A stretch of 64,000 nt of DNA from Anaerolineales bacterium (GTDB lineage Bacteria; Chloroflexota; Anaerolineae; JAAEKA01). Shown in pieces: positions 3,694 to 18,774 of this stretch. Numbering within the stretch: position 1 is the stretch's first letter; the number at the start of each line of letters is the position of its first letter. Made by a program: the position numbers and the translations under genes. The DNA is taken from positions 459,261 to 523,260 of the forward strand of contig JACKBI010000001.1 in assembly GCA_020634615.1 (NCBI GenBank), read 5' to 3'. A model generated the notes under the pieces. That model saw nothing but the letters and a program-made list of their open reading frames with translations, was not told the DNA's origin and searched no databases.

Positions 3694-3766
3694 GCCAACG
3701 CAGGAAAATGTTTATACGGGTGTGAACACGAATAGAAGGATTTACCAGTGTGACAACACTCGTCGA

Positions 3767-4522: not shown

Positions 4523-4694
4523 ATCTGTCGATGTCGTGATTCAGTGACTGCCAATCCGCCACTTCCACGAAAGCGGAAATCCAGATCTATGGCCTGTGTT
4601 TCTTGCTTCGGCGCATGCCGTCGCTAGGCATGGGGAACTTGGCGGGAATGACAGGTGGGCGTTGTCAAACACAAATAGTCGTGAGGATGTAGTG

Positions 4695-4925
4695 ATGGAA
4701 ACAATGACGTTAGATCAGGTGCCCGACGCCGCGATGGAACTGTCGTTTGACCAGCGGGAGATGCTGCTGGAGATTATCCTCAGCCGGCAGATCGATACAC
4801 GCCGCAGCGAAATCGTGACTGATGCCGAGACGTCCCTGGCCGAGTACCGTGCCGGCAAGCTTAAGCCCCAGATGGCGGAAGAGGTCATCAACAAGTTGCG
4901 TCGGGAGCTTGAAGACTCTGAATGA
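4695..4925 (+). CDS. small addiction-module-component-like protein (tentative)
   Basis: 76 aa charged helical protein (…LSFDQREMLLEIILS…AEYRAGKLK…). GAGGATG RBS 6 nt upstream. Its stop overlaps the next start. Confidence 0.3.
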   Translation: METMTLDQVPDAAMELSFDQREMLLEIILSRQIDTRRSEIVTDAETSLAEYRAGKLKPQMAEEVINKLRRELEDSE

Positions 4926-5446
4926 GAGGACCCAACATGCCAAGAGTAGCCCCTGTATTGGACCACACCCTCCACATGATCGAAGACCTGCGCGGGCAGG
5001 TGCGTGACCTGATTGCTGACCTGCCGGCGGAGGCGTTGAACTGGCTGCCGCTGCCGGAGGCGGAGGACCACTCGATGAACTCGCTGGCCGTCATGGCCGC
5101 GCACGTAGCCGGCGCGGAGCATTTCTGGATCGCCGAGGTGATCGGCGGCTACCCGGCCACGCGCGACCGGCCCGCCGAGTTCGTCACCGAGGTGGACGGG
5201 CCGGACAGCCTGCTGGCCCGGCTGGACGAAGTTGGCGCGGAGACGCGCGAGGTCTTCGCGCGCCTGACCGCCGCGGATCTGGACGAGATCCGCCAGGCGC
5301 ACGAGCGGGCGGTGACGACGCGCTGGGCCATTCTGCACGTCATCGACCACACGGCGCTGCATCTGGGCCACATGCAGATCACCTACCAACTGTGGATGGG
5401 CGGCGGCAGCAAGCCCTCGCCGCGCTGGTACGAGCGTTTGCCGTAA
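4922..5446 (+). CDS. DinB/DUF664 (DinB_2) family metal-dependent protein
   Basis: His-containing helices (AAHVAGAEHFW, HVIDHTALHLGH) typical of the DinB_2 four-helix-bundle family. ATGA coupling to the upstream small ORF. Confidence 0.55.
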   Translation: MRGPNMPRVAPVLDHTLHMIEDLRGQVRDLIADLPAEALNWLPLPEAEDHSMNSLAVMAAHVAGAEHFWIAEVIGGYPATRDRPAEFVTEVDGPDSLLARLDEVGAETREVFARLTAADLDEIRQAHERAVTTRWAILHVIDHTALHLGHMQITYQLWMGGGSKPSPRWYERLP

Positions 5447-5468: not shown

Positions 5469-6317
5469 ATGACCCAACACATCTATTGGCACGCTCCAGT
5501 CTGGGAAGTGCTGCTCTTGGGGTTGACCGGCTTGGCGCTTCTGGCGTGGCTGGTGTGGCGTGCTGTGCGTCGTCCTCATCCGTCAGCGGCACTCTCGGCC
5601 ATCGATCCCGCGCTGAACGACCAACCCCTTTTCTTCTTCGACCGGGTACATGGCATCGTGGCTCTCAACGATGGCGCCCAACAGGTGTTGAATACACTGT
5701 CTGCATCTCAAGATTCGCACTCTCTGGACATTCTAACTGATGCACTGCTGGAGGCGCAGGAAGAATCGCGCCTTGTCCAGCAGGCAGGATGGCCGAAGCC
5801 GGGCTATAGTCTGATAGCAGCTCCCGTTGCCGGCCAGGCGGGGAGCGTCACCGGCGTCTTCGCGTTGGTCGCGCCGGAACCGCCCCTTCTGCCGGCAGAG
5901 CGCCGTATCGATGAGCCGGCCATGCCGGCGACGGACTGGATCGAGATCGGCGCGACGTTGCGACTGCACCGGCAGCGGCCTGCGGTGCGCGTCGAGCGGA
6001 TCGATCCCACGACGACGGGGCAAGCAGCCATGGCCTGGCAGGAAAACCAGATCAGCCCCACGGAAGAGGCGCTATTGCGGCACTTGCTAACGCATTCCAA
6101 TGAAGTGCAGGCTGCGGAAGCGTTGTTTAGCGCTGTATGGCCCGACGATGAAGTGGGCACGTTCGGCTTGCGTCCTGACCAGAAGGACCGCCTACGCCGT
6201 CTGGTCTTTCAACTGCGCCAGCACGTGGAACCCGACCCGCGCGCGCCACGCTACGTGCGAACGGCTCACGGCGCGGGCTACGTGCTGTATTCGAATGGGG
6301 AGCTGGCTCTCCCATGA
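5469..6317 (+). CDS. membrane-anchored transcriptional regulator with a C-terminal OmpR/PhoB-type winged-helix DNA-binding domain
   Basis: N-terminal TM helix (VLLLGLTGLALLAWLVW). C-terminus LTHSNEVQAAEALFSAVWPDDEV…RLRRLVFQLRQHVEPDPRAPRYVRTAHGAGYVL matches the trans_reg_C pattern. Confidence 0.6.
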   Translation: MTQHIYWHAPVWEVLLLGLTGLALLAWLVWRAVRRPHPSAALSAIDPALNDQPLFFFDRVHGIVALNDGAQQVLNTLSASQDSHSLDILTDALLEAQEESRLVQQAGWPKPGYSLIAAPVAGQAGSVTGVFALVAPEPPLLPAERRIDEPAMPATDWIEIGATLRLHRQRPAVRVERIDPTTTGQAAMAWQENQISPTEEALLRHLLTHSNEVQAAEALFSAVWPDDEVGTFGLRPDQKDRLRRLVFQLRQHVEPDPRAPRYVRTAHGAGYVLYSNGELALP

Positions 6318-7870
6318 AACGCTCCAGACGTTGGCTCTCGCTGGCCGGATCGCGCCGGCTGATCGTTAGTCTCACGCTGGTTTGGCTGATGCTCATGCTG
6401 GGCTGGCTGGCGGCGCGCAGCGATGGGGTGGGCGGGCGACCGCTGGTCATCGTGTGGGGTGCCGATCCGGGCAGCTACGACCCGCAGCAGACGTCGAATC
6501 CGGTGGCTCAGGACGTTTTTCGCCACGTCTGCCAGCCCTTGTTCTATGAGGACGAGGGCGGGGCGGTGCGCGGGTTGCTGGCGGAGGATGGGTTTCAATA
6601 CAGCGATGACGGGCGGCGGCTGAGCATTCAACTACGGCCGGACATCACCTTTCACGACGGCGCCGCGCTGACCGCCGAAGTGGTGCAGTCCAGCTTTGAA
6701 CGCTTGCAGCGATTGAGCGTTTCACCCCTGCTCGCCGATCTGCGCGGTGTCGCGGTGACGGCGCAGCCCGACGGACGCACCGTGTTGTTTGACCTGCCGT
6801 CGCCCGACTTCGATTTCGTACGACTGGTGCTGGCCAATCCCTACGCAGCTATCGTGTCGCCGCTGACTCAGGAAACAAATGGACCAGGCTTCGTCGCTTG
6901 CACTGGTCCGTACCAGTTTGCAGCCAGCCTCTATCGTCCCGGCCATTCGTTGACGCTGGTGCGCTTCGCCGATTATCGTTGGCCGCCGGCGCTGTTCGCG
7001 AACCGGAGCGCGCCGCGCATCGCCCGTATTCGCTTTGACTTCATTGCCGATCGCGCTGAACGCCTCGATGCGCTGGTCGACGGCCAAGGCTGTGTCTTAA
7101 GTCTGAGCGCAGAGGATGTGAAGCAGGTAGCGGATATCCCCCGGTTTCGACTCTACGAGGCCACGGGAGGCGTCACCTATCTGGGCTTCAACTTCCAACG
7201 GGGCCGCTGGCAGGATGTGCGGGCGCGTCAAGCTGTCGCCATGGCATTGGATAAAGCCAGCCTGGCGGGTGACGGCCCTTTCCTGGTAGCTGACACGCCG
7301 CTGACGCCCAACACCGTCGGCTACGACCCCAGTGTAGCAGTTGCCGGCTATGGCTATGCTCCAGAGCGAAGTCGGAAGCTGCTGGCTGAGGCCGGTTTCG
7401 ACAGCGACGCCGAGGTGGTGCTGCTGATCCCCGAAAGCAGCACCTATCGCCAACTGGCCGCCGCCGTGCAGCAGCAGTTGCAGGCTATTGGGTTGAGCCA
7501 GATCCGGCTGCGTGAGGTTGCGCGCTCCGATATCTTGACACAGCGCCAGGATTTCGATCTGCTGTTGTTCGATTACGCCTGGGGAGACTATACAGCGTTG
7601 GGCATCTTCCTCGGCCCGGGGCCGCGCAACCTGCTCAACTACTCCGGCGGTGACGTGGCTCACCTGGTGAACCAGGCGCGCCTGACAGCGGATCTCAACC
7701 TGCGCCAGCAATACGTGAACGAGGCGCAACGGGCTGTGCTGGAACAGGCCGTCTGGCAGCCATTGCTGGTGCGGCAGATCACCTTCGCCGTGGATGGCGA
7801 GTGCGTGCAGGGCGAGCGCCAGTCTCCTTATGGAGAACTCCTCTTCTACGATGCTGACACTGCTCCCTGA
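6314..7870 (+). CDS. ABC transporter substrate-binding protein, family 5 (oligopeptide/nickel type)
   Basis: N-terminal signal/TM then a typical SBP_bac_5 architecture (…LVIVWGADPGSYDPQQTSN…, ~518 aa). ATGA overlap with the upstream regulator gene. Confidence 0.6.
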   Translation: MKRSRRWLSLAGSRRLIVSLTLVWLMLMLGWLAARSDGVGGRPLVIVWGADPGSYDPQQTSNPVAQDVFRHVCQPLFYEDEGGAVRGLLAEDGFQYSDDGRRLSIQLRPDITFHDGAALTAEVVQSSFERLQRLSVSPLLADLRGVAVTAQPDGRTVLFDLPSPDFDFVRLVLANPYAAIVSPLTQETNGPGFVACTGPYQFAASLYRPGHSLTLVRFADYRWPPALFANRSAPRIARIRFDFIADRAERLDALVDGQGCVLSLSAEDVKQVADIPRFRLYEATGGVTYLGFNFQRGRWQDVRARQAVAMALDKASLAGDGPFLVADTPLTPNTVGYDPSVAVAGYGYAPERSRKLLAEAGFDSDAEVVLLIPESSTYRQLAAAVQQQLQAIGLSQIRLREVARSDILTQRQDFDLLLFDYAWGDYTALGIFLGPGPRNLLNYSGGDVAHLVNQARLTADLNLRQQYVNEAQRAVLEQAVWQPLLVRQITFAVDGECVQGERQSPYGELLFYDADTAP

Positions 7871-7958
7871 CACCATGGATCGATTGGCCATAGATCAACA
7901 GCAGGCCTATATCTTGTGGTGTTGGCGAAAAGAACTCTGTATATCGCGTAATACCTTT

Positions 7959-8063
7959 GGGGTAGCCGCCGGAAATCACAAACAATCATGAAAAATCACA
8001 AAGTATCATGAAATCTGGGGCGGTTTTGTAGTATGGTGGAGAAGCCACCGAGGCGTTCGGTGA
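7959..8063. promoter_or_regulatory. conserved upstream element, copy A: tandem 20-bp direct repeats AATCACAAACAATCATGAAA / AATCACAAAGTATCATGAAA, then TTTTGTAGTATGGTGGA and a conserved leader
   Basis: Near-identical sequence also at 8676-8826 and 14764-14915. Each copy ends 27-35 bp before an AGGAGG RBS and the ATG of a secreted-protein gene. Confidence 0.5.
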
Positions 8064-8093
8064 ACGGAGCTTGGAAATAGAGGAGGTTTCACT

Positions 8094-8498
8094 ATGTTGA
8101 AGCGAGGCATTGGGTTGGTCGTCGTGTTTGCGCTGTTGGGCGTGTTGTTCGTGGCTGCCATAGCGTCTGCCCAGGACGGTGAAGAAGGCCCCATCCAGCC
8201 ATGGGAGATTGCACAGAAGGGCGGATACAACGTCATCGCGATTCACGAGGAAGTAGGCATAGACACATTGGACCGTGTTCATGCCTTGTTGACACAGGAA
8301 TATGGCGACAAGGTGCTGTACTGGACGGTTCAAGAAATTGATGGTGTCCAACATGTTTATGCCTACCCATACAGAGAGGGGGAAGACGCCAAGACATTCG
8401 TTGAGCTAATCGAGAGAACTGTGAATGACGATTTGGCTGTGACGTACTGGAAGCGACTACACCTTCCTGCTTGCACCAGGAGTTCTATGCGCTGCTAA
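8094..8498 (+). CDS. secreted hypothetical protein, first of two homologous ~75 aa domains. Frame ends prematurely (…VTYWKRLHLPACTRSSMRC*).
   Basis: AGGAGG RBS at 8081-8086. Signal peptide MLKRGIGLVVVFALLGVLFVAAIASAQD. Domain 1 (…LTQEYGDKVLYWTVQEIDGVQHVYAYPY…) is homologous to the product of the overlapping downstream ORF. Confidence 0.45.
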   Translation: MLKRGIGLVVVFALLGVLFVAAIASAQDGEEGPIQPWEIAQKGGYNVIAIHEEVGIDTLDRVHALLTQEYGDKVLYWTVQEIDGVQHVYAYPYREGEDAKTFVELIERTVNDDLAVTYWKRLHLPACTRSSMRC

Positions 8499-8728
8499 AC
8501 AATCGTTTCGGCGAGAAGTTGTTGACATGGAGCGTCCAGGAATTGGATGCTCTACACTATGTCTATGCATTTCCCCCCTATCCTGATCGTGATCAGAACA
8601 TGGCGTTCGCGGAGGAACTGGAGAGTTTCGTGGAGGGCTACGCCGAAGATACAACTTGCAGCAGGATAGAGGACTTCGACGCTCACTTTCCGATGATCGA
8701 CAACACGCAGGGATCACTTGGGCAGTAG
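8471..8728 (+). CDS. second homologous domain (TTG-start ORF in a shifted frame). Probably the frameshifted 3' part of the same gene.
   Basis: LLNNRFGEKLLTWSVQELDALHYVYAFPPYPD aligns with domain 1. No own signal peptide and no RBS. Overlaps the upstream ORF by 28 nt. Confidence 0.35.
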   Translation: MHQEFYALLNNRFGEKLLTWSVQELDALHYVYAFPPYPDRDQNMAFAEELESFVEGYAEDTTCSRIEDFDAHFPMIDNTQGSLGQ

Positions 8729-8826
8729 CCGCCGAAAATCACAAACAATCATGAAAAATCACAAAGTCTCATGAAATCTGAGGTGGTTTTGTAGTATGAT
8801 GAATGTGTCGCCGAGGAGTTCGGTGG
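8676..8826. promoter_or_regulatory. conserved upstream element, copy B. Includes the 3' coding end …DAHFPMIDNTQGSLGQ* of the preceding ORF, the direct repeats and the TAGTAT box.
   Basis: About 88% identical to copy C across ~150 bp. Direct repeats at 8737-8776, TAGTAT at 8792-8797. Confidence 0.5.
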
Positions 8827-8857
8827 ATGTTGAATGCCTTACGCAGGAGGTAATGAA

Positions 8858-9637
8858 ATGAGACGAACAAAATTGGAAGCCGCGTTAGCCATCTTGCTGG
8901 CGCTAACTGTGCTTCTTCAAGGTGTACAGCAAGCGTCGGCGAGCGATACGAAGCCGGGGTCTTCCTTGACACAGTATACGGTTGAAACCATAACAACCGA
9001 GTTCAGGAGACTGGATCCCTTTGTTTCCTCCGGGGATGGGAAACAGGTGTTAGATATAGAAGAAGCTAAGAAAGCTGGTTTTTCTGACACCATTCTTGCT
9101 CTCGCAGGTGAGGTGATTGATTATCAGAATGAGGTGCGTGAAATTGCCCAACAAGGCGAAAAAGCAGATGTGCGGCAAATTGATATTCCAGTGACAGGCT
9201 ATCCGTTACTTACGGAGTTTGAAGCTATGTTGAGCCGCTATCAGCCCGTCGACCAGGGAGCAACTAGAGCCCCTGACACTCACGCTTGCGGGACGTATGC
9301 CCATCCAGTTCCAAATTATACCCCTCCTCGCTCTCCCATGGGATGGTATCCTAATGCGCACAACACTTTGTTGAGCTGGGGCTTTCATCAAACGGCAGGG
9401 TATGCATGTGGAGGCGATCCCTTCGTCCCATGCGAGCGAGATTACACACGAGGACGGGGATACTCTAGCCAATACGGTTATTGCGATTCCCCCCGTTTTC
9501 GCGATCACGGAACTCGGGATGCGGCAAATCATGACATATGGATTCAATATGGAGAACCAAATCCTGAGATATTTTCCTATGGGTGGCCCTATTGGGACTG
9601 GGGATGGTATGCAGAGTGGTGGCATGACACTTACTAG
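8858..9637 (+). CDS. secreted hypothetical protein with a Trp/Tyr-rich C-terminus (…YGWPYWDWGWYAEWWHDTY)
   Basis: GGAGG RBS 7 nt upstream. Signal peptide MRRTKLEAALAILLALTVLLQGVQQASA. Cys-containing mid region (HACGTYAHP…YACGGDPFVPCERDY…GYCDSP). Confidence 0.55.
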   Translation: MRRTKLEAALAILLALTVLLQGVQQASASDTKPGSSLTQYTVETITTEFRRLDPFVSSGDGKQVLDIEEAKKAGFSDTILALAGEVIDYQNEVREIAQQGEKADVRQIDIPVTGYPLLTEFEAMLSRYQPVDQGATRAPDTHACGTYAHPVPNYTPPRSPMGWYPNAHNTLLSWGFHQTAGYACGGDPFVPCERDYTRGRGYSSQYGYCDSPRFRDHGTRDAANHDIWIQYGEPNPEIFSYGWPYWDWGWYAEWWHDTY

Positions 9638-9785
9638 TACAGCCGGGCGTAAGCAAGGTGAGGGTTGCCCGCACGATGTTATGCCTTCGACTGGCTCAGG
9701 CCAGGACTGAACGGGTCTAACACGAAAACTCGCTAGGAAACGAGGGTTATTGCTGTCAATCCAGCATCCATTCGAGCATCCAACA

Positions 9786-9829
9786 TCAGTGAAGCATCTC
9801 GCCTCACATGCGCAGCGAGATGCTTCACT
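9786..9829 (+). terminator. perfect 16-bp stem hairpin (CAGTGAAGCATCTCGC … GCGAGATGCTTCACTG) downstream of the 8858..9637 gene
   Basis: Inverted repeat seen directly, followed by a T-containing tract (ACGTATCTTGT). Confidence 0.5.
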
Positions 9830-9931
9830 GACGTATCTTGTCGTAAGGGTTGTGTACTCTCGACCCGTTTAGCATGGCAACTGTCTGGGTATTTACGCCC
9901 ACAAGTCGCTGACCAAGTTTACTGGCTTCAA

Positions 9932-10330
9932 GTGAATCATACGACTATGAATCGCAGAAAAAATGCTATCATCCTTATCGTTGTTTTCTTGATGATAGGT
10001 TGCGCCAGCGGTTTGATACTGGCAAACAGCAGAGTTGTCAAGAGACTGTTCGTAAATAACGTTTACGATAATAGGGAGCACTTTCTCAGTTGCGAAGAAC
10101 TACCTTCTCAGACCGAAGTAATGAAAATAGTAGAGGAGCACAAAGATGTAATCCGCGCAATCGAGCAAGTCCATCCAGGATTTGTCGATATAGAAATTGA
10201 CACCGCGAGTTGTCCAGGAAAAGCAGATATTGGAATCTGGTATCCGTCTCATCGAGATAGACTGGCTATTGAAGAACTCATTGACGGCGATACTTTCTTT
10301 GGAATACCGTACAGGTTACGAAATTACTAA
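9932..10330 (+). CDS. hypothetical membrane-anchored or lipoprotein-like protein
   Basis: Low-GC ORF with an N-terminal hydrophobic segment (AIILIVVFLMIGCASG). An alternative start is at 9947. Confidence 0.4.
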   Translation: MNHTTMNRRKNAIILIVVFLMIGCASGLILANSRVVKRLFVNNVYDNREHFLSCEELPSQTEVMKIVEEHKDVIRAIEQVHPGFVDIEIDTASCPGKADIGIWYPSHRDRLAIEELIDGDTFFGIPYRLRNY

Positions 10331-10561
10331 CGACGTAACCGATTTTGTCCTGTCAAGCATGATTTGATAGAAATAAATCCCCTTTCGCTTTGCCGTTTCT
10401 CCTGCTTGGCGGTTTGCTTTTCCGTGCTGCCCGACTAAAGAGAGGGTAGGCGAATTGCTACTACTGGTGTTCGCCGAGACATGAACATTATCTTTGGAAT
10501 AACACTTCTGCCGAAGTTCTTCCAGCAACTTGTACGTAATGAGGACGGCCAAAAGGGAGAA

Positions 10562-11251
10562 ATGACCATGAGAAGAAAGATCATCGTCCTATGTACAGTA
10601 TTGTCAGTGGCCATAGGAAGCACGCTGATTGTCAAAGGTCTAGAGGAAATTGCTGGTGCGGCATCCACAGCCTCGGTGTCACCTAACGAGTGGCCTTCAT
10701 TTACGATGGTGTACGAGGATTGGAGGCTTGGTTCCAACGACGAGCAGCCCCAAGTGCAAGCCGTCAAGCTGATCTACCACGACAAACGGCATTGGAAGAC
10801 TGAGCTACTAGCTCACAACGATGCCGTGGACGTCGTTGGGACATGGGCAGAATATCATGGCGCGGAAATGCGTAGCTTTGACCCGCGTACCGGAGAGCTG
10901 CGTGTGGATCAACAGGATATTCCTGAAGATGCTGTGTATGTTCCCGAGCAGTGGCTCATTCCGGGTACCATTCCCAGGTTGCTCACGCAACAAAATGCTG
11001 AGCAACTCTCCGGATCGAGTGGAGGGCTGGCTGTATTGGTGCTTGAGGAGAATTTGCCGTGTCAGGCGCCTACAGAGGCAATGTTCCGCGCTGGTATACA
11101 GCCTTGTGATAGCGAATATCGAGTATCTCGACGCGAGATCACCTATCGCGAATCTGATTTCTTGCCGGTTGGGATTGTCGATAGCCTTGATGGCGTAGAG
11201 GTTCATAGGGTAACTGTAACCGAGTTGGTCATGAAGAACGGGGAGGAGTAA
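10562..11251 (+). CDS. hypothetical secreted or membrane-anchored protein
   Basis: GGGAG RBS. Signal-anchor MTMRRKIIVLCTVLSVAIGSTLIV. Confidence 0.45.
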   Translation: MTMRRKIIVLCTVLSVAIGSTLIVKGLEEIAGAASTASVSPNEWPSFTMVYEDWRLGSNDEQPQVQAVKLIYHDKRHWKTELLAHNDAVDVVGTWAEYHGAEMRSFDPRTGELRVDQQDIPEDAVYVPEQWLIPGTIPRLLTQQNAEQLSGSSGGLAVLVLEENLPCQAPTEAMFRAGIQPCDSEYRVSRREITYRESDFLPVGIVDSLDGVEVHRVTVTELVMKNGEE

Positions 11252-11257
11252 TGCTTA

Positions 11258-12193
11258 ATGTCTATGCTTACCCATACAGAAAGAGGGACACTACTGTGCG
11301 ATTGCGAAAGCGAAGCTGCACAATTGGATAACAATAACGTGGCTTACAGCTTCAACCGTTGGTGGCTATTGCTGATCGGCATCGGCTTGGCTGCCATCCT
11401 GTTGCTTGCATTGCCCGCTTCCCAGATGCCTGAGGTGGATGCATGGTCGTTGGTCAACAAAACGCCAGACGGGTCCGCCTTTCTAGTGGATGCTGACCAT
11501 GTGGGCTATGCACGAGCTACTGTCTATCGACGTGCGAATCCCGATCAACAGGAGCCTGCCGATTCATATCACAGTCCCGTTCTTCCTCTCTCTTCCGACA
11601 CCTTTCTTTCTGAAACCTGGGCTCGCGGCGGCAACACTGGCCAAACACGAGCTACCTTTCGGGATAAAGAATCGGGGCGTTTGATTTCAATGATGATCGA
11701 CACTGGGGAGAGTGTGTTCCTTTTTGATGAAACGACTGAAAACGGGATGTGGATACCGTCGTCAGGCGCCGCTGGAGCGGACGGGCAGCGGGGGCCATCG
11801 TCTGAAGTGCCGTTGGCTGAAGGAGAAAGGGAAGGATATGCGGTGACGGACGTGGTTATCTCTTCCTGGGGGCGGCCAGCCTGGGTGGTACAACACCGCT
11901 TTGATCCTGCCTCAATGGAGGCGGACCGGCCAGGACCCAATTTCCCTTCCGACCTGGATATTCAGGCCCTCGAAACCAGGTGGGTAGTAGACAAGGAGAC
12001 CGGGCAGTTTGTTCGAACAGAACAATGGGCCAATACGCCCGCCGGCTCCGTGCTTCTCGAACGTGTCGAAACCGAGCCGTTGGAGATCTTGCCGCTGGAT
12101 AGCCTGCCCGCTACATGGCTTGAAGCGCCTGAAGATGTGCCCCAGGCCACACTGCCGGCGCTGGTGGCGCCCACCATACGCAGCGCAAACTGA
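11258..12193 (+). CDS. hypothetical single-pass membrane protein
   Basis: TM helix WWLLLIGIGLAAILLLAL after a ~35 aa cytoplasmic N-terminus. Abuts the stop of the upstream gene. Confidence 0.45.
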   Translation: MSMLTHTERGTLLCDCESEAAQLDNNNVAYSFNRWWLLLIGIGLAAILLLALPASQMPEVDAWSLVNKTPDGSAFLVDADHVGYARATVYRRANPDQQEPADSYHSPVLPLSSDTFLSETWARGGNTGQTRATFRDKESGRLISMMIDTGESVFLFDETTENGMWIPSSGAAGADGQRGPSSEVPLAEGEREGYAVTDVVISSWGRPAWVVQHRFDPASMEADRPGPNFPSDLDIQALETRWVVDKETGQFVRTEQWANTPAGSVLLERVETEPLEILPLDSLPATWLEAPEDVPQATLPALVAPTIRSAN

Positions 12194-12241
12194 ATCAACC
12201 TCAAGTTGGTGATTGTATGCAGACCTATCTGAGGAGCAACG

Positions 12242-12496
12242 ATGCAAGAATCAACCAGACATATACGTGATTCGATAAATATAGAACAGCATTGGGCGTC
12301 TCTGACCAGGCGCGAGCGTGAGGTGTTGGCGCTGGTAGCGCAAGGCAAGAGCAATCGAGAAATTGCTCAGAAACTTAGCATTACTGACAAGACGGCGGGG
12401 CATCATGTTGGTCATATCTTGAGGAAGTTGGAAGTGTCGTCCAGAACCCAAGCCGCCTTATGGGCGATCTGGACAGGTACAGCAGAAATGGGATAG
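12242..12496 (+). CDS. LuxR/GerE-family HTH transcriptional regulator (stand-alone DNA-binding domain)
   Basis: LTRREREVLALVAQGKSNREIAQKLSITDKTAGHHVGHILRKLEVSSRTQA is the classic LuxR-type HTH signature. Confidence 0.6.
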   Translation: MQESTRHIRDSINIEQHWASLTRREREVLALVAQGKSNREIAQKLSITDKTAGHHVGHILRKLEVSSRTQAALWAIWTGTAEMG

Positions 12497-12623
12497 GGAC
12501 AAGTCCCTATAGAAATAGGGAATTCTCCCGATGACAGCCCAAAGCAGAAGTGCTACAATATTGGCATCGGTGGAAAGTCCTACGAGTAAATCACCAAATA
12601 TGGTCGTAAAAGGAGCATATACG

Positions 12624-13277
12624 ATGAAATCCACAAAGTTCGTTTCCCTCTTGGTCCTTCTGGCATTGCTGACCATGGGGATCCAACCAACGTTCGCCCA
12701 CGTAATCGGTCCTAACTCGCCAATTTCGCACATCCCCCTTGCAGACGAACCAATAGTCGATGAGCCCGTAATCAGCACCGTAGAAACCCAAGAGTGGGTG
12801 CAAGGACCAGGTGAACTGGGAGGCAGATACGTAACAGTTACAAAGGTGCTGTTGTCTCAGACCGCGACTGTGCGTGTGCCTCAACCAGGATTGCCTGCAA
12901 TCCAAACTAACGTACAACCTGATTGGGTTGTTTATTCCGGGGACTACGTTATGACAATGGAGAGGTGGCTGCGAAATTCCCCTGATTGGCTAGGTAGACC
13001 TTGGGTAGATGCAGGTGGCTCCACGGCCACCAACGTCACTGCACAGGAGATACGCGTCTCTGGAACCCACTGGTATGGCGGAAGTGGTTGCAATAGCCAA
13101 GGCCCCAACTTTAGTGGGACCAATTACAACACTACCTCAGTTTCGGCACAGACGGCTCAGAATTTGTTTGGTGGCAATCAGTATCACTGCGTTAAATCAG
13201 GTACACACCAGGCAAAGATCAACGGTTCTTGGCCATTCTGGGTAACAGGTCAAGAAGGGCCCACTGCTTATTGGTAG
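12624..13277 (+). CDS. secreted hypothetical protein
   Basis: AAAAGGAGC RBS. Signal peptide MKSTKFVSLLVLLALLTMGIQPTFA. Confidence 0.5.
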   Translation: MKSTKFVSLLVLLALLTMGIQPTFAHVIGPNSPISHIPLADEPIVDEPVISTVETQEWVQGPGELGGRYVTVTKVLLSQTATVRVPQPGLPAIQTNVQPDWVVYSGDYVMTMERWLRNSPDWLGRPWVDAGGSTATNVTAQEIRVSGTHWYGGSGCNSQGPNFSGTNYNTTSVSAQTAQNLFGGNQYHCVKSGTHQAKINGSWPFWVTGQEGPTAYW

Positions 13278-13435
13278 CCTGAATTCACGAAAGACAAGTC
13301 TCGGCACGATGCAGTAGATAAAGTAGAGACGCTACCAGGGTATCGAAACTCAGGTCGAATGGTTGTGCAACGTATTAGAAATCGCTGGACTTGCTTGCTC
13401 AAAGTTCTTACGTGAGTTTGGCAATGTGTCTTCGA

Positions 13436-13470
13436 GAATGTACCAGGCAGTTGCACCGCCTGGTACATTC
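13436..13470 (+). terminator. rho-independent-like terminator hairpin (GAATGTACCAGGC…GCCTGGTACATTC, then ATTT)
   Basis: Perfect 13-bp inverted repeat with a 9-nt loop, downstream of the 12624..13277 gene. Confidence 0.5.
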
Positions 13471-13548
13471 ATTTGGTAGGCTACTATCCGCAGAGTTTTG
13501 GCCGAGTGAACCTATTGTTGTGACAAAACTTCCTCAAGGTGTATATCA

Positions 13549-14757
13549 ATGGCGCTACTGTCACCTGACAAACTCTCTGGCAAGGTAGTTATCTTGTTTA
13601 TCCTGATAGCTTCTTCATTGGGGGTCGTATTGTTGGATGATTTGGTTCTCTCGAAAAACTGTACTGGCCCCTATGTTCTTTCTCGCAGAGATTGCATGTT
13701 ACTGCGTTCTCCGTTGATATGGCTCGCGCCCGACCGTACAGTTGTATTCGCAGAGCCCGAAATTCTGCCGACGCCGGTCATTCCTATAGGGGTCAATCCA
13801 ACAGAGATTAAGGAGAATAGCCCTGAGGAGCAAATGGAAGTTGTAGGAATAGCGCAAACGAATGAAGGAGGCTATGTCAGTCTTCAAGGAACCTGGTTGG
13901 AGCAAGGAAGCGGTGATAACGCACTCTACGTCGTCGAAAACGGAGCACCGTTTATCGGGCAGCTAGAACTTGGATCTTTTGAGTCCAAACCTCGCTCTTA
14001 TATCATCAATTGCTTGATCGACTTCATCCAGTTGCCATGCGGCCCGGCGGCGCCGCTCCTACAGTTCATCACACTAGATTATGGCCAAGTCGTCAAGATA
14101 CCCATCCATATCACTGGACTAGAACCTGGGCTGCACGACCTCACGGTGGTCTTTGATCAAGATTTGGGTGTAGATCGCGACAATCCGCAGGCCGAGGCAC
14201 GTTTGCTTTCCAAAGTAATGGCAATTCGTGCAAGCATAGCTGTTGGTCGTGATACAACCCCTATCGCCCGATCGTTCCAAAGCTTGCCCATACCGCTTCA
14301 TACAACTGGTCTGGATGGGCTGGCGGTGAGTACGAAGATAATGCCGTGGGATCGGTACGGTGGGATACAGCAGAAGACGTTTCTTCAAGCTGACCCTGGG
14401 CAGAAGATCACCCTGTATCTCCACCTCTCGAATAGTCAGCCCGTCCAGGTTGATTATGCACTGTCTGCGTTTTTGGATCATCAGCAGATCCCTCTGGTCC
14501 GTCGCGGCCAAGGCCATGTACCGCTGTATGTCTCCGCCAAGTCGCAAGCGCTGTATGTGATTCCTATTGAGTTTACGTCTCCTTCCCAGCCTGGTCATTA
14601 CGAATTCGTCGTTTACGGCGAGCCATTTCCCCAGGCGCGAATGGATCTGACGAGGCAAACGTTTGAAGGACAATTAGACTACGGCCTGGGGATCGACATG
14701 TGGTCATCGTCTAAGATCTATCTCGATGTGAACGACCACAAATTGCCGCGTGAGTAA
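13549..14757 (+). CDS. hypothetical membrane-anchored protein
   Basis: Long ORF with an N-terminal hydrophobic segment (VVILFILIASSLGVVLL). No recognisable family. Confidence 0.45.
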   Translation: MALLSPDKLSGKVVILFILIASSLGVVLLDDLVLSKNCTGPYVLSRRDCMLLRSPLIWLAPDRTVVFAEPEILPTPVIPIGVNPTEIKENSPEEQMEVVGIAQTNEGGYVSLQGTWLEQGSGDNALYVVENGAPFIGQLELGSFESKPRSYIINCLIDFIQLPCGPAAPLLQFITLDYGQVVKIPIHITGLEPGLHDLTVVFDQDLGVDRDNPQAEARLLSKVMAIRASIAVGRDTTPIARSFQSLPIPLHTTGLDGLAVSTKIMPWDRYGGIQQKTFLQADPGQKITLYLHLSNSQPVQVDYALSAFLDHQQIPLVRRGQGHVPLYVSAKSQALYVIPIEFTSPSQPGHYEFVVYGEPFPQARMDLTRQTFEGQLDYGLGIDMWSSSKIYLDVNDHKLPRE

Positions 14758-14763
14758 GAGGTT

Positions 14764-14915
14764 TTGACGCTCACTTTCCTATGATCGACAGCACGCGGGG
14801 ATCACATGGGCAGCAACCGCCGAAAATCACAAACAATCATGAAAAATCACAAAGTCTCATGAAATCTGGGGCGGTTTTGTGGTATGGTGGATGTGTCGCT
14901 GAGGAGTTTGGCGAT
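14764..14915. promoter_or_regulatory. conserved upstream element, copy C (direct repeats at 14825-14864, TGGTAT box, conserved leader)
   Basis: About 88% identity to copy B, including the non-coding remnant DAHFPMIDSTRGSHGQ. Precedes the AGGAGG RBS and ATG of 14950. Confidence 0.5.
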
Positions 14916-14949
14916 GAATCTATCAGCCTAATTTGCGAGGAGGATCAAG

Positions 14950-16395
14950 ATGGCAAAACGCGCGATTTCTGGACTGTTATTGGTCTTAATTGTAGTTGCC
15001 TCGGCCCGCTCGGTCGCGGCTTCTCCCGCAGCTCAACCGATACCACCACATTGGCAATTGTCCGGTTGGTATTCTCCTGGGTTCTGGGACAACACGGTTC
15101 CAAATGGCCAGTACGCTCCTACAGGGTATCGCCACGGCCATTGGTTCTACGATGGAGGTGGCCCTCCCGAGTACGTCTTTGGCAGCATTATGGACTGGAC
15201 TCAAGCCAGAGCAGATAACGTCAGATACTACAGCAACAATCTGCGGTTCTGGTGGTGTGATTTGGTCTACATGTATTACACCCATGACCACACTGACATG
15301 AGCGGGAAACTGAATGGAGTGGGAGCCGGGACCAATATGCCCAATCCTACGTTTGATCGAGATGATGACGCACCGGCGGATGGCAGATATGAGGAATACG
15401 AGGTCGTTAGTGTCAACCAATCGTTCCCTCAGAGTAGTCCATTCTTCTATTCGTTTGTCTCATATTACGAGAAGCAAGTTTCTGGACCCGGCTACCTTTT
15501 GGAGACTCCTGCGCTTTCTGCAAAGCCGTGGTGTATGAGCGAATACAACACCTGGCGCTATGATGATCATCCTCAAAGGCTGGACTACAATGACGTAGAA
15601 CTGGGAATGGTATTGGACAGAGATACTGATAGTGTTGCTCAAACACAAAGCAATTTGTATCCGATCAGTCCTGTTAGTGGGACTATCTCTGCTGGTCCAA
15701 TACAGTTGCATACAGTAACCGATTATAGAGTACCACGTATTCTGATTGGAGCCGCATATCCTGTGAGCACCAGAAGCGATCTCGATGCCTATGTCGACTT
15801 TGTGAAGTCTGGCTTGATGACACCGTTGCGTCACGAAGATGTAAACAACGTGCTGACAATTGTGACTTTCAATGAGCCCGTGTCTCGAAAAGTTCTTGAA
15901 GAAATACTCGGCCTATCAGACGCATCTCAAATCGAGATGATCAAGGCAGTGTATTCTGACGTGAATGATCCAAACTCGGCCACTAATACCTGGACCTTGG
16001 AAGCTCATCCCGAAGGAAATTCAAACTACACTGACGGCTTAAGTACACTGGCATCAAGCATCAGTTCTATGGAATTGATGCCAAACCGAGAGGAAGCTGC
16101 CGATACTCTTGGTGAGGTTCCATTGTCACCTCGCCTGGAGATGATTGGCTTTGTCGCGATCGAACTCTGGCTTCCCATCGAACAAATTGATTATCTTAAT
16201 GAACACGAGATGATCTTCCTGGCTGATCCCCTACCAACCTATGCTCGCATGCTCGTATCTCATACAGATGAGGCTGTTCGCATCCGATCGATGAATGATG
16301 ACCTATATCAGCTGCCAGACGGCATCGAAGCATTCATCATTGCTGATTTCACCGATCTCTATTCAGAGATGCAATTCCTTTCACAAGAAAGGTAG
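14950..16395 (+). CDS. secreted hypothetical protein (481 aa)
   Basis: GAGGAGG RBS. Signal peptide MAKRAISGLLLVLIVVASARSVAASPAAQP. Confidence 0.55.
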   Translation: MAKRAISGLLLVLIVVASARSVAASPAAQPIPPHWQLSGWYSPGFWDNTVPNGQYAPTGYRHGHWFYDGGGPPEYVFGSIMDWTQARADNVRYYSNNLRFWWCDLVYMYYTHDHTDMSGKLNGVGAGTNMPNPTFDRDDDAPADGRYEEYEVVSVNQSFPQSSPFFYSFVSYYEKQVSGPGYLLETPALSAKPWCMSEYNTWRYDDHPQRLDYNDVELGMVLDRDTDSVAQTQSNLYPISPVSGTISAGPIQLHTVTDYRVPRILIGAAYPVSTRSDLDAYVDFVKSGLMTPLRHEDVNNVLTIVTFNEPVSRKVLEEILGLSDASQIEMIKAVYSDVNDPNSATNTWTLEAHPEGNSNYTDGLSTLASSISSMELMPNREEAADTLGEVPLSPRLEMIGFVAIELWLPIEQIDYLNEHEMIFLADPLPTYARMLVSHTDEAVRIRSMNDDLYQLPDGIEAFIIADFTDLYSEMQFLSQER

Positions 16396-16445
16396 ATACT
16401 GCTTCAAATCGGCCTCGGCAGCTATACAGCCCGATACATATACAA

Positions 16446-16474
16446 GGAGCGAGGCCACAATGTGTGGCCTCGCT
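16446..16474 (+). terminator. palindromic hairpin GAGCGAGGCCACA-AT-TGTGGCCTCGCTC
   Basis: Perfect 13-bp inverted repeat about 50 bp after the stop of the 14950..16395 gene. Confidence 0.45.
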
Positions 16475-16698
16475 CGCGATCTTAAGGTAACAACTCCTAA
16501 GCCAGAGACTGCATACACCTATGAGAGAACCAAATGCAACTCTCGACATCATCGCAGTAACCGGCAAACTCCCCCTGATTCTGAGAACCTCGAACTACTT
16601 ACCTGGGCATTTGCCAGGCAAGACCGAGGCACAAAACTGGCGCGAATGATCTTCTTTGTCTTCCATGATCGCAACATCCTTGGTCTGGGAAAGGCGAT

Positions 16699-17220
16699 TT
16701 GATCGGACCAACAGGTCTTAGGAGTTCCACAGTGAGCAAACGACGTTCCGTTGCACTAACGCTTGCATTGGTCACGATTGCGGCCGGCTATCTGGCAGTG
16801 CTCTTTATTGTCTCCCAGATCTACTACAGCTCGTCCATCGGAATCGATCCTCGCAGCGCTGCTTCCTTCGCGGTTTCCCTCGTCATCTTGCCCTACGTGG
16901 TTGGGGGCGTCTTTCTGGGTCTGTTCAGCAAGAGCTATGATCCCAAACTGGCGCTGGCCGCCGGCCTGATCGCCACCATCGGCGAACGGCTGCTGATTCT
17001 GGGGTTGGCGGCCTGGACGCTGGGCGGTTTTCGCCAGCTGAACTCCGCCGGAGAGGTCTACTACGTGGAGGGCGGGCCGGACCTGCTGGGAGCCATCCAA
17101 TCTGAAGCCCTCCCCTACTTTACCTGGGTCTACATCCTGCTGGGCATCCTCGTGAGCATTCTGGCCCTGCTGGTTGCTTACAAGGCCGTGGCGTGGTTGA
17201 GGCAGCGACAGCGGGGATAG
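16699..17220 (+). CDS. hypothetical integral membrane protein (4 predicted TM helices)
   Basis: Hydrophobic segments (LTLALVTIAAGYLAVLFIV; FAVSLVILPYVVGGVFLGLF; LIATIGERLLILGLAAW; WVYILLGILVSILALLVAY). Confidence 0.4.
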   Translation: MIGPTGLRSSTVSKRRSVALTLALVTIAAGYLAVLFIVSQIYYSSSIGIDPRSAASFAVSLVILPYVVGGVFLGLFSKSYDPKLALAAGLIATIGERLLILGLAAWTLGGFRQLNSAGEVYYVEGGPDLLGAIQSEALPYFTWVYILLGILVSILALLVAYKAVAWLRQRQRG

Positions 17221-17271
17221 CAAGGTAACCAGACGATTGCCCTACCGTTGTACTCATGCTACAATGCCCCC

Positions 17272-17595
17272 ATGAAGCCGATACCGATCAACGAGAAGCT
17301 GGTCTGGGATTACGACATCCCGGAGGATGCGCAGGAGAACGAGGCGTTTCGCCGGTGGTACCTGGCGCGGGTGTTGTCACATGGCGGTGACGCTGATCTG
17401 CGAGCGATCGGCTTCCAGACCATCCATGATTATCTTCCCGAACTCAACCTGCCCCGCGAGATCAGGGAATTCTGGTATTGGTACTTCGGCCAGCCGCACG
17501 CCAGGGAACGCTATGGCGAGCTTGACTCCACTCAAGTTGACTATGGTTATCGAACCAGCGAGTTGATGCAAGACGTGACCCATCCTAGAACGTAG
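17272..17595 (+). CDS. hypothetical protein
   Basis: ORF with the start MKPIPINEKLVWDYDIPEDAQ. No family assignable. Confidence 0.35.
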   Translation: MKPIPINEKLVWDYDIPEDAQENEAFRRWYLARVLSHGGDADLRAIGFQTIHDYLPELNLPREIREFWYWYFGQPHARERYGELDSTQVDYGYRTSELMQDVTHPRT

Positions 17596-17627
17596 CGAGG
17601 GCAAGCAACGCGACGGAGAGTCAAAAC

Positions 17628-17656
17628 GGCCGGGAACTGTACGACAGTTCCTGGCC
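17628..17656 (+). terminator. hairpin GGCCGGGAACTGT-ACG-ACAGTTCCTGGCC after the 17272..17595 gene
   Basis: 13-bp near-perfect inverted repeat in a convergent intergenic region. A second hairpin lies at 17681-17700. Confidence 0.4.
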
Positions 17657-17764
17657 GTTACGCGTAGCGGCCCCATGTAAGGCGGCTTGGGAAAGCCGCC
17701 GGCTCCTCACCGGCAGACAGCGCGCCGGCAACCACTGCCTGTTGGCCCCAATTGCGTTGCCAGC

Positions 17765-17867
17765 TTCGACGCCGGTTCGCATCGGAGGATGCGAACTCCG
17801 CGGGGTCGTCTTTGCAGGTCTTCGACATCGCAGCCGGTTCGCATCGGAGGATGCGAACTCCGCGGGG
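17765..17867. repeat. two ~41-bp direct repeats (CTTCGAC…GCCGGTTCGCATCGGAGGATGCGAACTCCGCGGGG), each with an internal 9-bp stem GTTCGCATC/GATGCGAAC, separated by ~17 bp
   Basis: Seen directly. Located between convergent genes (17595 end and 17899 end). Confidence 0.5.
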
Positions 17868-17898
17868 CGCTACCACACTATCGAACTACCGCACTAAC

Positions 17899-18774
17899 TC
17901 ACCCCTTCACATACGGCTCGCCCAGCGCTTCCGGTTTGGCTGATCCCCATTTGGCGCGGAACCACTTGGTTGACATCACCAGCAGCACCAGCAACGTGAT
18001 GACGAAGGGGACGGTGCGCCAGATGTAGCGCGAGAAGACGCCCGGCAGGAAGAGCTGCGGGTTGAGCGAAAGCTGCCAGAGGAAGCCGAAGAGCAGCGAT
18101 CCGCCCAGCAAAATCCAGGGGTTCCACAGCGAGAAGAAGACCAGCGCCAGCGCGATGAAGCCCCAGCCCATCAGGAAGTTGTAGTTCCAGACCGGGTTGT
18201 AGTCCAGTGAGTAGACCGCGCCAGCGAAGCCCATCAACATGCCGCCGACCACCACGCACATGTAGCGCGTCCGGGCGACGTTGATGCCCGACACCTCGGC
18301 TACCGATGGATTCTCGCCGACTGAGCGGATGCGCAGCCCGAGGCTCGTCTTCGCCAGCACGAACCACATCACTGCCACCAGGACGACGCTCAGGATGAAG
18401 AAGGGGGAAAAACCGGCGATCGTCGGTATCCGGTCCATTCCCAGCGGCCCGGTGTAGGGGTTGCCGATGAAGGTGGTCAGGCCAAAGCCCAGAATCCAGA
18501 TGCCCATGCCGCTGACCACCTGATCGACGCCCAGCGTGATGGAGAAGAAGCCGTGCAATGATCCCAGCAGCGCGCCGACCAGGATGGCGACCGCGAAGCC
18601 GACCGCGTAGCTGTCGCTGTTCTGCGCGGCCATGAAGCCAAAGGTCGCGCCGAACAGCATGATCCCCTCGATGCCGACGTTGAGGATGCCTGACCGCTGG
18701 CCCAGCAGCTCACCCAGGGCAGCCAGGGTGAAAATCGTCGAAGCCTCAAGACTCCGGGCTATGAACTCCCACAT
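17899..18774 (-). CDS. ABC transporter permease (BMP/nucleoside-type, YufQ-like)
   Basis: Multi-TM protein. Operon partner of a BMP-family SBP and a two-domain ATPase. Confidence 0.7.
   Translation of the reverse strand: MWEFIARSLEASTIFTLAALGELLGQRSGILNVGIEGIMLFGATFGFMAAQNSDSYAVGFAVAILVGALLGSLHGFFSITLGVDQVVSGMGIWILGFGLTTFIGNPYTGPLGMDRIPTIAGFSPFFILSVVLVAVMWFVLAKTSLGLRIRSVGENPSVAEVSGINVARTRYMCVVVGGMLMGFAGAVYSLDYNPVWNYNFLMGWGFIALALVFFSLWNPWILLGGSLLFGFLWQLSLNPQLFLPGVFSRYIWRTVPFVITLLVLLVMSTKWFRAKWGSAKPEALGEPYVKG

Follow-up and report, generated by a model that had tools for sequence, protein, structure and literature searches.

The block of lower-GC DNA at positions 7871-16700 of a metagenome-assembled Anaerolineales genome is probably the exchangeable cargo compartment of a cassette that is conserved in Chloroflexota and consists of a gene for a membrane-anchored regulator, a gene for a solute-binding protein (SBP) and a promoter/operator element. 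All positions are those of the window, the whole 64-kb stretch of DNA that was analyzed, and the loci compared with it carry L-numbers, of which L002 is a near-identical strain and L006/L022 and L025 are sister lineages. The regulator and SBP genes lie immediately upstream of the block, and the element, which comprises around 70 nt, is found three times within it, namely before gene A, ORF2 and ORF9. The gene pair and the element recur in other Chloroflexota species, in which the element keeps its position and orientation while the genes behind it differ. The proteins encoded in the block are available under the accessions MCB9129656-63.

The regulator and SBP genes are translationally coupled and form the conserved upstream part of the cassette:

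5469-6317, + strand: regulator gene, encoding a membrane-anchored protein of 282 amino acids (aa) with an OmpR/PhoB-type winged helix (Trans_reg_C 4.3e-11, residues 192-273)
6314-7870, + strand: SBP gene, encoding a 518-aa SBP_bac_5 protein (Pfam 4e-54) with an N-terminal transmembrane (TM) anchor (residue 14)

The nearest solved relatives of the regulator are the DNA-binding domains of the response regulators RpaA, WalR, OmpR, PhoB and KdpE. The protein has one N-terminal TM-like segment (residues ~9-30; TM segments and export signals are hydropathy readings throughout), which is preceded by about 8 residues and followed by the sequence RAVRR. Residues 1-190 consist of this segment and a region without an assigned family, and a search for a receiver domain gave no Response_reg match even at E <= 1; likewise, no histidine kinase gene adjoins the regulator gene. 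The SBP is related to peptide, nickel and glutathione binding proteins in the PDB. Its TM anchor, the 4-nt overlap of its start with the stop of the regulator gene and the absence of an adjoining Opp-type permease gene fit a sensory role. When the SBP was used as an anchor with one genome per species, 16 loci were retrieved, and the regulator gene adjoins the SBP gene in 13 of these as well as in L008; the other three loci start too near a contig end to tell. Directly behind the TM anchor, the SBP carries the juxtamembrane motif W..(R/W)(S/C)(D/E)G.GG(R/P)PL (window 6314-6460), which is conserved in all species examined and is a candidate contact site for the regulator.

The element is composed of TCAY direct repeats with a 10-nt period, an extended -10 box and a 5' stem-loop. 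Its three copies in the window are as follows:

7970-8038, + strand: element copy 1, repeats AATCAC/AATCAT/AATCAC/TATCAT at 7973-8016, -10 box TATGGT at 8032-8037 (profile E = 1.2e-10)
8733-8801, + strand: element copy 2, repeats at 8736-8779, -10 box TATGAT at 8795-8800 (nhmmer E = 1.3e-10)
14821-14890, + strand: element copy 3, repeats at 14824-14867, -10 box TGGTATGGT with the hexamer at 14883-14888 (nhmmer E = 6.9e-12)

Each of these copies contains four AATCAY direct repeats with a 10-nt period, then, at a spacing of 22 nt, TATGGT or TATGAT, and, after about 9 nt, a 6-bp stem-loop. The -10 box of copy 3 is preceded by TGG, and a promoter scan at copy 2 returned ATGAAA-18-TATGAT (8771-8800). 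The 44-nt core motif has three matches in the 64-kb window, where none would be expected, and an nhmmer profile built solely from 11 other species recovered exactly these three sites and nothing more at E <= 10. Over 320 kb of related loci the profile matched at the expected places only, and unrelated control loci (725 kb) scored no higher than 19, compared with 25-56 at the true sites. These controls stem from a metagenome scan with a degenerate form of the pattern, which proved too loose; it returned at least 120 loci, none of which held regulator, SBP or cargo genes, and they were reused as a negative control. The first-pass annotation of this DNA had noted neither the triplicated element nor its link to the regulator and SBP genes just upstream, and literature searches returned no description of the gene pair or the motif. 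A search of the region 7000-18000 against Rfam at E <= 1 gave no match; the element is therefore not a known RNA family. Its classification as a miniature inverted-repeat transposable element was considered and rejected, as terminal inverted repeats are absent and position and orientation are fixed.

Directly 3' of the SBP stop codon and on the same strand, the element is present in 13 other Chloroflexota species-level genomes, or 14 including the lineage studied here (loci L015-L021, L023, L024, L026, L028, L029 and L008-L010). Exceptions among the loci that reach far enough are L027 and L030, in which the element matches weakly or not at all. Across species, three to five TCAY repeats with a 10-nt period replace or abut the -35 hexamer, the last repeat is located 22 nt before TATGGT or TATACT, this spacing is conserved, and TG precedes the -10 box in most species. 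The intergenic DNA of L008-L010 contains three AATCAY repeats with the same period and the same distance to the -10 box, and the repeats of L015 read CTGTCAGAAA three times. In L007, which encodes an ORF9 orthologue with 69% identity, the 109 nt upstream of ORF9 are about 92% identical to those of the window, whereas the gene differs at 55% of its synonymous sites, from which it follows that the element is under selection.

The genes headed by the three copies, together with the remnant that follows gene A, are listed below:

8094-8443, + strand: gene A, truncated; the first 117 codons are kept and share 98% identity with residues 1-117 of the full 219-aa protein
8444-8728, + strand: 3' remnant of gene B, comprising its last third; identity with B from L006/L002 89-95% (blastp/tblastn)
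8858-9637, + strand: ORF2, encoding a 259-aa exported protein with an N-terminal helical part and a beta domain rich in cysteine and aromatic residues
14950-16395, + strand: ORF9, encoding a 481-aa exported protein with the invariant motif YYT.D..D...D.DDD..G..E.E

Which genes stand behind the element differs between species. ORF9 is the cargo most often tied to the regulator-SBP pair: its relatives are located behind the element in L008, L021, L023, L024 and L026 and follow the pair even at 27-37% protein identity (37% in L008-L010). ORF2 relatives are found behind the element in L028, L029 and L155, and a PA14 protein in L020; L029 and L155 also have an Amidase_6 protein immediately behind a promoter copy, and in L026, a Peptidase_M23 protein follows the ORF9 relative. 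The remaining cargo is unannotated, and almost all cargo proteins start with a signal peptide or a lipobox. L029 and L155 each possess three element copies (8606-8676, 10611-10682 and 12312-12383 in L029), of which the second heads the Amidase_6 gene and the third the ORF2 relative; both of these copies are preceded by fragments of the 3' end of the SBP gene (30 and 129 codons). In most of the other species examined, the GC content of the DNA 3' of the SBP gene is 3-11 points below that of the upstream DNA and rises again further on; one species whose GC content is already low has no such drop. Since the drop recurs after the SBP gene across species, the lower GC content is a standing property of the slot and not the outcome of one recent event.

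In the window itself, the first-pass annotation had described a fall in GC content from ~65% to ~50%, with all open reading frames on the + strand, signal peptides or anchors on nearly every product and no recognizable families. These observations hold up well. The block has a GC content of 50.1%, compared with 61.3% for the remainder of the window, and its edges are sharp (~7800-7870 on the left, 16700-17000 on the right); as the flanks have 60-66%, the value of ~65% was slightly high. The GC content at third codon positions (GC3) is 0.41-0.65 in the block genes and 0.70-0.91 in the DinB, regulator, SBP, ORF10, ORF11 and ABC transporter genes. The tetranucleotide L1 distance between the block and the rest is 0.438 (~19 standard deviations), compared with 0.116 +/- 0.017 and a maximum of 0.163 for 47 pieces of the same size taken from the rest, and the GC-normalized tetranucleotide correlation is 0.70 for the block, with a mean of 0.93 and a minimum of 0.88 for the rest. 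Every credible block gene lies on the + strand. Of the ten products, nine begin with a signal peptide or anchor, the exception being ORF6, which lacks a hydrophobic segment. The products of A, ORF2, ORF3, ORF4, ORF5, ORF7, ORF8 and ORF9 have one N-terminal hydrophobic segment each, with lysine or arginine before it and best 15-residue Kyte-Doolittle means of 2.3-3.2. Searches of the block ORFs against Pfam, NCBIfam, PHROGs and PADLOC assigned no family except GerE for ORF6.

The arrangement of the block can be understood from two direct repeats, which are 90.6% identical over 149 nt without gaps and enclose the 5.9 kb from ORF2 to ORF8:

8675-8823, + strand: left 149-nt direct repeat, consisting of the 3' end of B and promoter copy 2
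14763-14911, + strand: right 149-nt direct repeat, consisting of a relic of the B 3' end and promoter copy 3

The layout is hence B - promoter - [ORF2...ORF8] - B relic - promoter - ORF9. ORF2-ORF8 occur only in near-identical strains and are absent from L006/L022 and L025, whose SBP genes are 94-98% identical to that of the window. L006/L022 carry A, B, one promoter copy, ORF9, ORF10 and ORF11 and lack window positions 8824-14769, with the junction located inside the repeat. The simplest reading, which we infer from these comparisons, is an insertion or unequal exchange by homologous recombination, in which the end of the preceding gene and the promoter would have served as the homology arm. 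The synteny comparison shows that ORF2-ORF8 are lineage-specific; however, A, B and ORF9 are shared with sister lineages, so that part of the block is not strain-specific. From ~6900, within the SBP gene, to 16700, the window and L006 are 96-99% identical at the nucleotide level, compared with 77-93% outside, and the synonymous divergence (dS) between them amounts to 0.022 for ORF9, 0.026 for A and 0.098 for SBP, but to 0.25 for the regulator gene, 0.32 for ORF10 and 0.42 for a permease gene. It follows that the lineages shared the cargo and the 3' half of the SBP gene with each other long after their divergence. ORF10, with its host-like composition and a dS as in the flanking genes, is the right flank of the slot.

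Deletions also shape the slot. 'ORF1' (8094-8498) and the overlapping open reading frame 8471-8728 turned out to be a chimera of two genes. The relatives L002 and L006 carry an additional 576 nt at window position 8443/8444, where L005 has a scaffold gap; in the intact relatives, gene A encodes a 219-aa exported protein and gene B a protein of 125-133 aa, which is a lipoprotein-like paralogue of the A N-domain. A and B are joined out of frame at 8443/8444, nearly without microhomology, and several distinct 134-aa variants of the chimera are found on many contigs. Given these variants and the scaffold gap in L005, the junction is most probably a genuine deletion allele present alongside the intact one; a pure misassembly is unlikely, as the distinct variants are found on many contigs. 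A possible likeness of the C-terminus of full-length A (...NDKASSVWGYY) to an I36/beta-gamma-crystallin-type domain was dropped, since no Pfam match was obtained at E <= 1. In L025 (HK-STAS-CHLO-19; 12572-13386), B is fused to approximately residue 267 of ORF9, and the promoter copy and the ORF9 N-domain are lost, which is a second, independent inactivating deletion in the slot.

According to another explanation, the block would simply be an island acquired by horizontal transfer, situated between the SBP gene and ORF10 and without any functional tie to its neighbors, and the repeats would be insertion scars. Its atypical GC content, GC3 and tetranucleotide usage, the absence of ORF2-ORF8 from the sister lineages, the recent exchange and the presence of cargo relatives in other contexts, even in another phylum, speak for this explanation, and the first-pass annotation had indeed proposed a horizontally acquired secretome island; atypical composition, exported products, variable content and recent lateral exchange are all borne out, but a classical island is not. 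No integrase, recombinase or other mobility gene was detected among the block ORFs with Pfam, NCBIfam or PHROGs, the 64-kb window is devoid of tRNA genes, and att-type ends of the block are absent, the only bounding repeats being the 149-nt promoter-region copies around ORF2-ORF8. Moreover, the supposed scar is a conserved promoter-like element, which stands behind the same gene at the same place in 13 other species-level genomes with different cargo and is better conserved than synonymous sites, and ORF9 relatives are still linked to the gene pair at 27-37% identity. A plain island is therefore an improbable description. A phage or plasmid origin found no support either: ORF2 relatives are missing from IMG/VR, ORF2 and ORF9 relatives from PLSDB, and the block DNA is unmatched in phage records. 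Among known anti-phage defense systems, PADLOC matched only the generic helix-turn-helix (HTH) of ORF6.

For the favored cargo compartment, we propose the following mechanism. The SBP would sense an extracellular ligand, which might be peptide-like as a guess from its family, and pass the signal to the regulator within the membrane. The regulator would bind the three to five TCAY direct repeats, spaced 10 nt apart at the -35 position, and activate the extended -10 promoter, whose transcripts would start with a short conserved stem-loop, probably a 5' stabilizer. Three units would answer the same signal, namely gene A, which is broken here by the deletion, ORF2 and ORF9. ORF3-ORF8, including ORF6, have no element copy and are probably expressed on their own. 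The cargo would be drawn from an exchangeable pool of lower GC content, and new cargo would enter by homologous recombination via the end of the preceding gene and the promoter, which would leave direct repeats such as those at 8675-8823 and 14763-14911.

A number of points weigh against this proposal. The predicted binding of the repeats by the regulator draws solely on their conserved adjacency and on the habits of the protein family. L015 is the only species with a differing recognition-helix region (KNRLQQLVYRLRQ vs KDRLRRLVFQLRQ) and also has a different repeat core; this co-variation is suggestive of the predicted binding, but it is a single case. The repeats are A-rich and phased, and for this reason an intrinsic bend of the DNA or an UP-like effect might play a part even if no factor binds. 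The regulator has almost no extracellular part, and coupling to the SBP would need to run through two TM helices; alternatively, the SBP gene could itself belong to the cargo, as its first gene, or the protein could serve transport together with a permease encoded elsewhere. Structure prediction gave no function for the cargo, as the ORF9 model failed and the confident ORF2 model has no structural neighbor. Furthermore, L011-L014 hold relatives of A and ORF9 without the element, and relatives of ORF7/ORF8 as well as an ORF2 relative in Brevibacterium occur without the regulator pair; the cargo is therefore not bound to the cassette.

What the cargo does is a matter of best guess: it may act extracellularly, either on the envelope of other cells or on that of the producer. 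Wall-hydrolase cargo in other species, small membrane protein or lipoprotein genes after larger cargo, fast turnover and frequent inactivation weakly suggest antagonism or envelope remodeling. A serious rival, which we regard as less likely, retains the same cassette but assigns the cargo to nutrient acquisition or to the upkeep of the cell's own envelope; the SBP would report a breakdown product, and the cell would answer with secreted hydrolases or binding proteins. SBP_bac_5 proteins bind peptides and oligosaccharides, in line with such a role, and the PA14, M23 and Amidase_6 cargo of other species would be compatible with cell wall turnover. A precedent is the ChiS-CBP system, which induces a utilization programme (10.1101/2020.01.10.902320). 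However, the rapid turnover, the lower GC content, the inactivating deletions (8443/8444 and L025) and the small membrane protein or lipoprotein genes are more typical of antagonistic or surface-variation loci, and no cargo protein of the window belongs to a recognizable enzyme family.

The leader stem-loop that follows each -10 box is conserved as well:

8046-8062, + strand: leader stem-loop 1, CACCGA GGCGT TCGGTG
8809-8825, + strand: leader stem-loop 2, CGCCGA GGAGT TCGGTG, with one G-U pair
14897-14913, + strand: leader stem-loop 3, CGCTGA GGAGT TTGGCG, with two wobble pairs

In a covariation analysis of 13 sequences from nine lineages, 94.9% of cells in the six pairs are paired, and two of the six pairs switch between AU and GC, with G-U intermediates. 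None of 500 shuffles reached the observed pairing or covariation, and sliding the partner strand by one to three columns lowered the pairing to 22-49%. As an RNA helix tolerates G-U pairs but a DNA palindrome is broken by them, a role at the RNA level is favored over an operator for a dimeric repressor; the evidence that the stem-loop acts in this way, for example by protecting the 5' end, is moderate, the helix being short.

The palindromic appearance of the leader is of relevance for ORF6, which could be imagined as the regulator of the block, binding either the element or the stem-loop DNA (CACCGG-N5-CCGGTG). ORF6 is the sole DNA-binding protein inside the block, proteins of the GerE type bind inverted repeats, and the leader is palindromic in several species. 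Nevertheless, none of the other species examined has an ORF6 homologue beside the element, although all of them keep the element and the stem-loop. In addition, the G-U wobbles in copies 2 and 3 break the DNA palindrome and keep the RNA helix, and ORF6 itself is located in the lineage-specific segment without an element copy of its own. We consider such a function of ORF6 very improbable. The first-pass annotation had called ORF6 a 'LuxR solo'; this name does not apply, since the 84-aa protein consists of the GerE HTH only and has neither an autoinducer-binding domain nor room for one.

The remaining genes of the block and its right flank are given below; for ORF2, ORF3, ORF4 and ORF7, the coordinates start at the likelier start codons (8858, 9947, 10568 and 12624, respectively):

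9947-10330, + strand: ORF3, small lipoprotein-like protein of 127 aa with an LMIGC lipobox, no family
10568-11251, + strand: ORF4, 227-aa exported protein, no family (Pfam, NCBIfam)
11258-12193, + strand: ORF5, 311-aa type II membrane protein made up of a cytoplasmic head of 30 residues, a single TM segment and an external domain, no family
12242-12496, + strand: ORF6, 84-aa stand-alone GerE/LuxR-type HTH protein (Pfam GerE 3.8e-21, residues 20-75)
12624-13277, + strand: ORF7, 217-aa exported protein
13549-14757, + strand: ORF8, 402-aa membrane-anchored protein, family of five clusters
16729-17220, + strand: ORF10, membrane protein with four TM-like segments, GC3 0.75

Homologue searches place ORF2 in a family of about 52 clusters, one of which is found in Brevibacterium in a different context; in this organism (Brevibacterium sp. 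ZH18), three small ORFs follow the gene. The AlphaFold2 (AF2) model of ORF2 reached a predicted local distance difference test (pLDDT) score of 87.5 and a predicted template modeling (pTM) score of 0.80, and it displays four near-invariant cysteines and a C-terminus rich in tryptophan and tyrosine. A Foldseek search with this model revealed no structural neighbor in the PDB or BFVD, and the predicted structure may represent a new fold. For ORF9, a word-indexed search yielded six clusters of relatives and a full HMMER profile scan 191 representatives, many of which comprise the N-domain alone; the family is unmatched in Pfam and, also with a deeper alignment of 44 sequences, in the PDB. Its AF2 model, built from seven sequences, was poor (pLDDT 46, with the N-domain unmodeled), and the PDB matches that Foldseek returned for it are meaningless.

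ORF5 starts 6 nt past ORF4. The idea that ORF5 and ORF6 constitute an anti-sigma/sigma pair was rejected because ORF6 holds only a region-4-like HTH. A homologue of ORF7 (45% identical) is located directly upstream of a homologue of ORF8 (38% identical) in L031-L033, and neither the regulator-SBP pair nor the promoter element is present around these genes. The pair (for example L031 9298-11200) lies within a run of five unannotated genes with a GC content of 56-59% in an unrelated organism of ~67-71%. The best sigma-70-like match of the block, ATGACA-17-TACAAT with an upstream TG (10 of 12 positions), is found at 12531-12559, a short distance upstream of the likely ORF7 start, and is a candidate for an independent promoter of ORF7. 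ORF10 also follows the ORF9 orthologue in L007, where its homologue is 63% identical.

Finally, the low-GC ORFs could be decaying or non-coding DNA in which signal peptide-like starts arose by chance. Consistent with this idea, family matches are lacking, A and B are broken here, and omega is 0.70 for ORF9 of the window vs that of L006, a comparison at very low divergence. However, omega amounts to 0.20 for ORF9 vs L007 (dS 0.98) and to 0.17 for gene A of L006 vs L011, which indicates purifying selection. In addition, 52 clusters are homologous to ORF2, whose fold is predicted with confidence, 191 representatives match the ORF9 profile, and ORF7 and ORF8 form a conserved pair. This explanation is largely refuted, and scarcely any weight is left to it.

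Between the genes of the block, three strong hairpins were detected on the + strand:

9783-9834, + strand: hairpin after ORF2, 20-nt arms that are 95% complementary (-33.5 kcal/mol, z = -5.1)
13436-13470, + strand: hairpin between ORF7 and ORF8 (-27.9 kcal/mol, z = -5.6)
16447-16475, + strand: hairpin after ORF9 (-26.9 kcal/mol, z = -5.5)

The first-pass annotation had taken them for terminators. The hairpins themselves are confirmed, but no U-tract follows any of the three on the + strand, so that a terminator function is only plausible; the hairpin after ORF2 may be a terminator or a 3' stabilizer.

Several features of the surroundings deserve mention. ORF11 (17269-17595) encodes 107 aa and belongs to no family; its homologue in L006, with 75% identity, directly precedes an AbiEii toxin gene (L006 12454-13351; Pfam 4.4e-18). 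Since the window lacks AbiEii, ORF11 may be an antitoxin-like orphan. In L025 (8691-8936), a further ORF11-like copy is located upstream of the regulator gene. Between ORF11 and a convergent permease operon, two direct copies of 40 nt (17766-17805 and 17828-17867) are 95% identical, each contains the palindrome GTTCGCATCGGAGGATGCGAAC, and both resemble hairpin repeats of the REP type. A second, smaller patch of lower GC content (56%) is located at 3001-5000, between an AllG/CoA-ligase-type gene pair and DinB; its ORFs 3229-3693 and 3614-4522 have no Pfam family, one of them has a lipoprotein-like start, and GC3 is 0.57 for ORF 3614-4522.

Beyond the window, the cassette might be a widespread and hitherto undescribed system of Chloroflexota, a broader claim that we put forward only tentatively. 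It would combine an OmpR-type regulator of reversed topology with an SBP_bac_5 co-sensor, and its promoter would be a regulatory switch and at the same time form, with the end of the gene before it, a homologous landing pad for swapping and stacking exported effectors, which would make it an integrase-free, integron-like arsenal locus with at least two uncharacterized families (ORF2 and ORF9). In activated sludge, sediments and soils, Anaerolineae and their relatives are abundant; genetic work on them is almost impossible, however, and the majority of the proteins that they export lack an annotation. Should the proposal be true, one short DNA motif would locate co-regulated secreted proteins and turn orphan genes into a testable regulon, and a binding protein-coupled, membrane-bound one-component regulator would exist outside the Proteobacteria. 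The promoter region would serve as a homology arm by which accessory genes are exchanged or stacked without a dedicated recombinase, and the defined promoter-regulator pair could provide an inducible expression tool for Chloroflexota.

The promoter layout resembles that of the pho box. Activators of the OmpR/PhoB family bind direct repeats with a period of 10-11 nt, and pho-box repeats replace the -35 hexamer. Similarly, direct repeats with a TGTCA/TCAY core occupy the -35 place before a normal -10 box, and the DNA-binding domains belong to the same family. Unlike PhoB, the regulator described here lacks both a receiver domain and a partner kinase, the repeats have a period of 10 instead of 11 nt and number three to five, and binding is predicted. 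With regard to the organization of the locus, the blp locus of Streptococcus pneumoniae and the pln locus of Lactiplantibacillus plantarum also combine conserved regulatory genes with a neighboring hypervariable region, whose units share a direct-repeat promoter and encode exported products and small membrane proteins. Both use a histidine kinase, a LytTR regulator, a peptide pheromone and a dedicated ABC exporter, and their cargo consists of small peptides with double-glycine leaders; none of these components was found at the locus studied here. With classical genomic islands, the block shares its atypical composition, its accessory content and its variable presence among relatives, but an integrase, a tRNA target and att repeats are absent, the bounding repeats are copies of the promoter region, and the slot is conserved across species. 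In contrast to integron arrays, there is no recombinase, and the repeats are promoter-region copies instead of attC-like imperfect palindromes.

The closest known kind of system is the co-component or ToxR-like transmembrane regulator. In VtrA/VtrC and ToxR/ToxS, the genes for a tethered winged-helix protein and for its membrane-anchored sensor partner overlap (Kinch et al. 2022, PMC9214523). The same partial overlap between the gene of a membrane-tethered OmpR-type regulator and that of a putative membrane-anchored extracytoplasmic partner is seen here, the pair would likewise control genes for exported products, and the cassettes evolve fast. However, the partner is a 518-aa SBP_bac_5 protein and not a small lipocalin-like protein such as VtrC or ToxS, so that the folds differ. 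The topology is also reversed: the ToxR-like layout consists of an N-terminal winged helix, a TM segment and a C-terminal periplasmic sensor, whereas here the TM segment is N-terminal, the winged helix is C-terminal, and there is almost no external part. Co-component systems are known from enteric Proteobacteria, and a sequence relationship to the Chloroflexota pair is shown for the winged helix only; topology, partner and phylum thus set the two apart. A solute-binding protein that steers a membrane-bound DNA-binding regulator is known from CBP and ChiS of Vibrio cholerae (bioRxiv 10.1101/2020.01.10.902320). Both systems comprise a solute-binding protein, a DNA-binding regulator that acts from the membrane and a dedicated promoter, although control of the latter is predicted for the cassette. 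ChiS differs in being a hybrid sensor kinase, whose periplasmic domain is large and whose DNA-binding domain is non-canonical, and CBP additionally serves an adjacent ABC transporter. The output of ChiS is one catabolic operon, whereas that of the Chloroflexota cassette would be a variable set of exported proteins.

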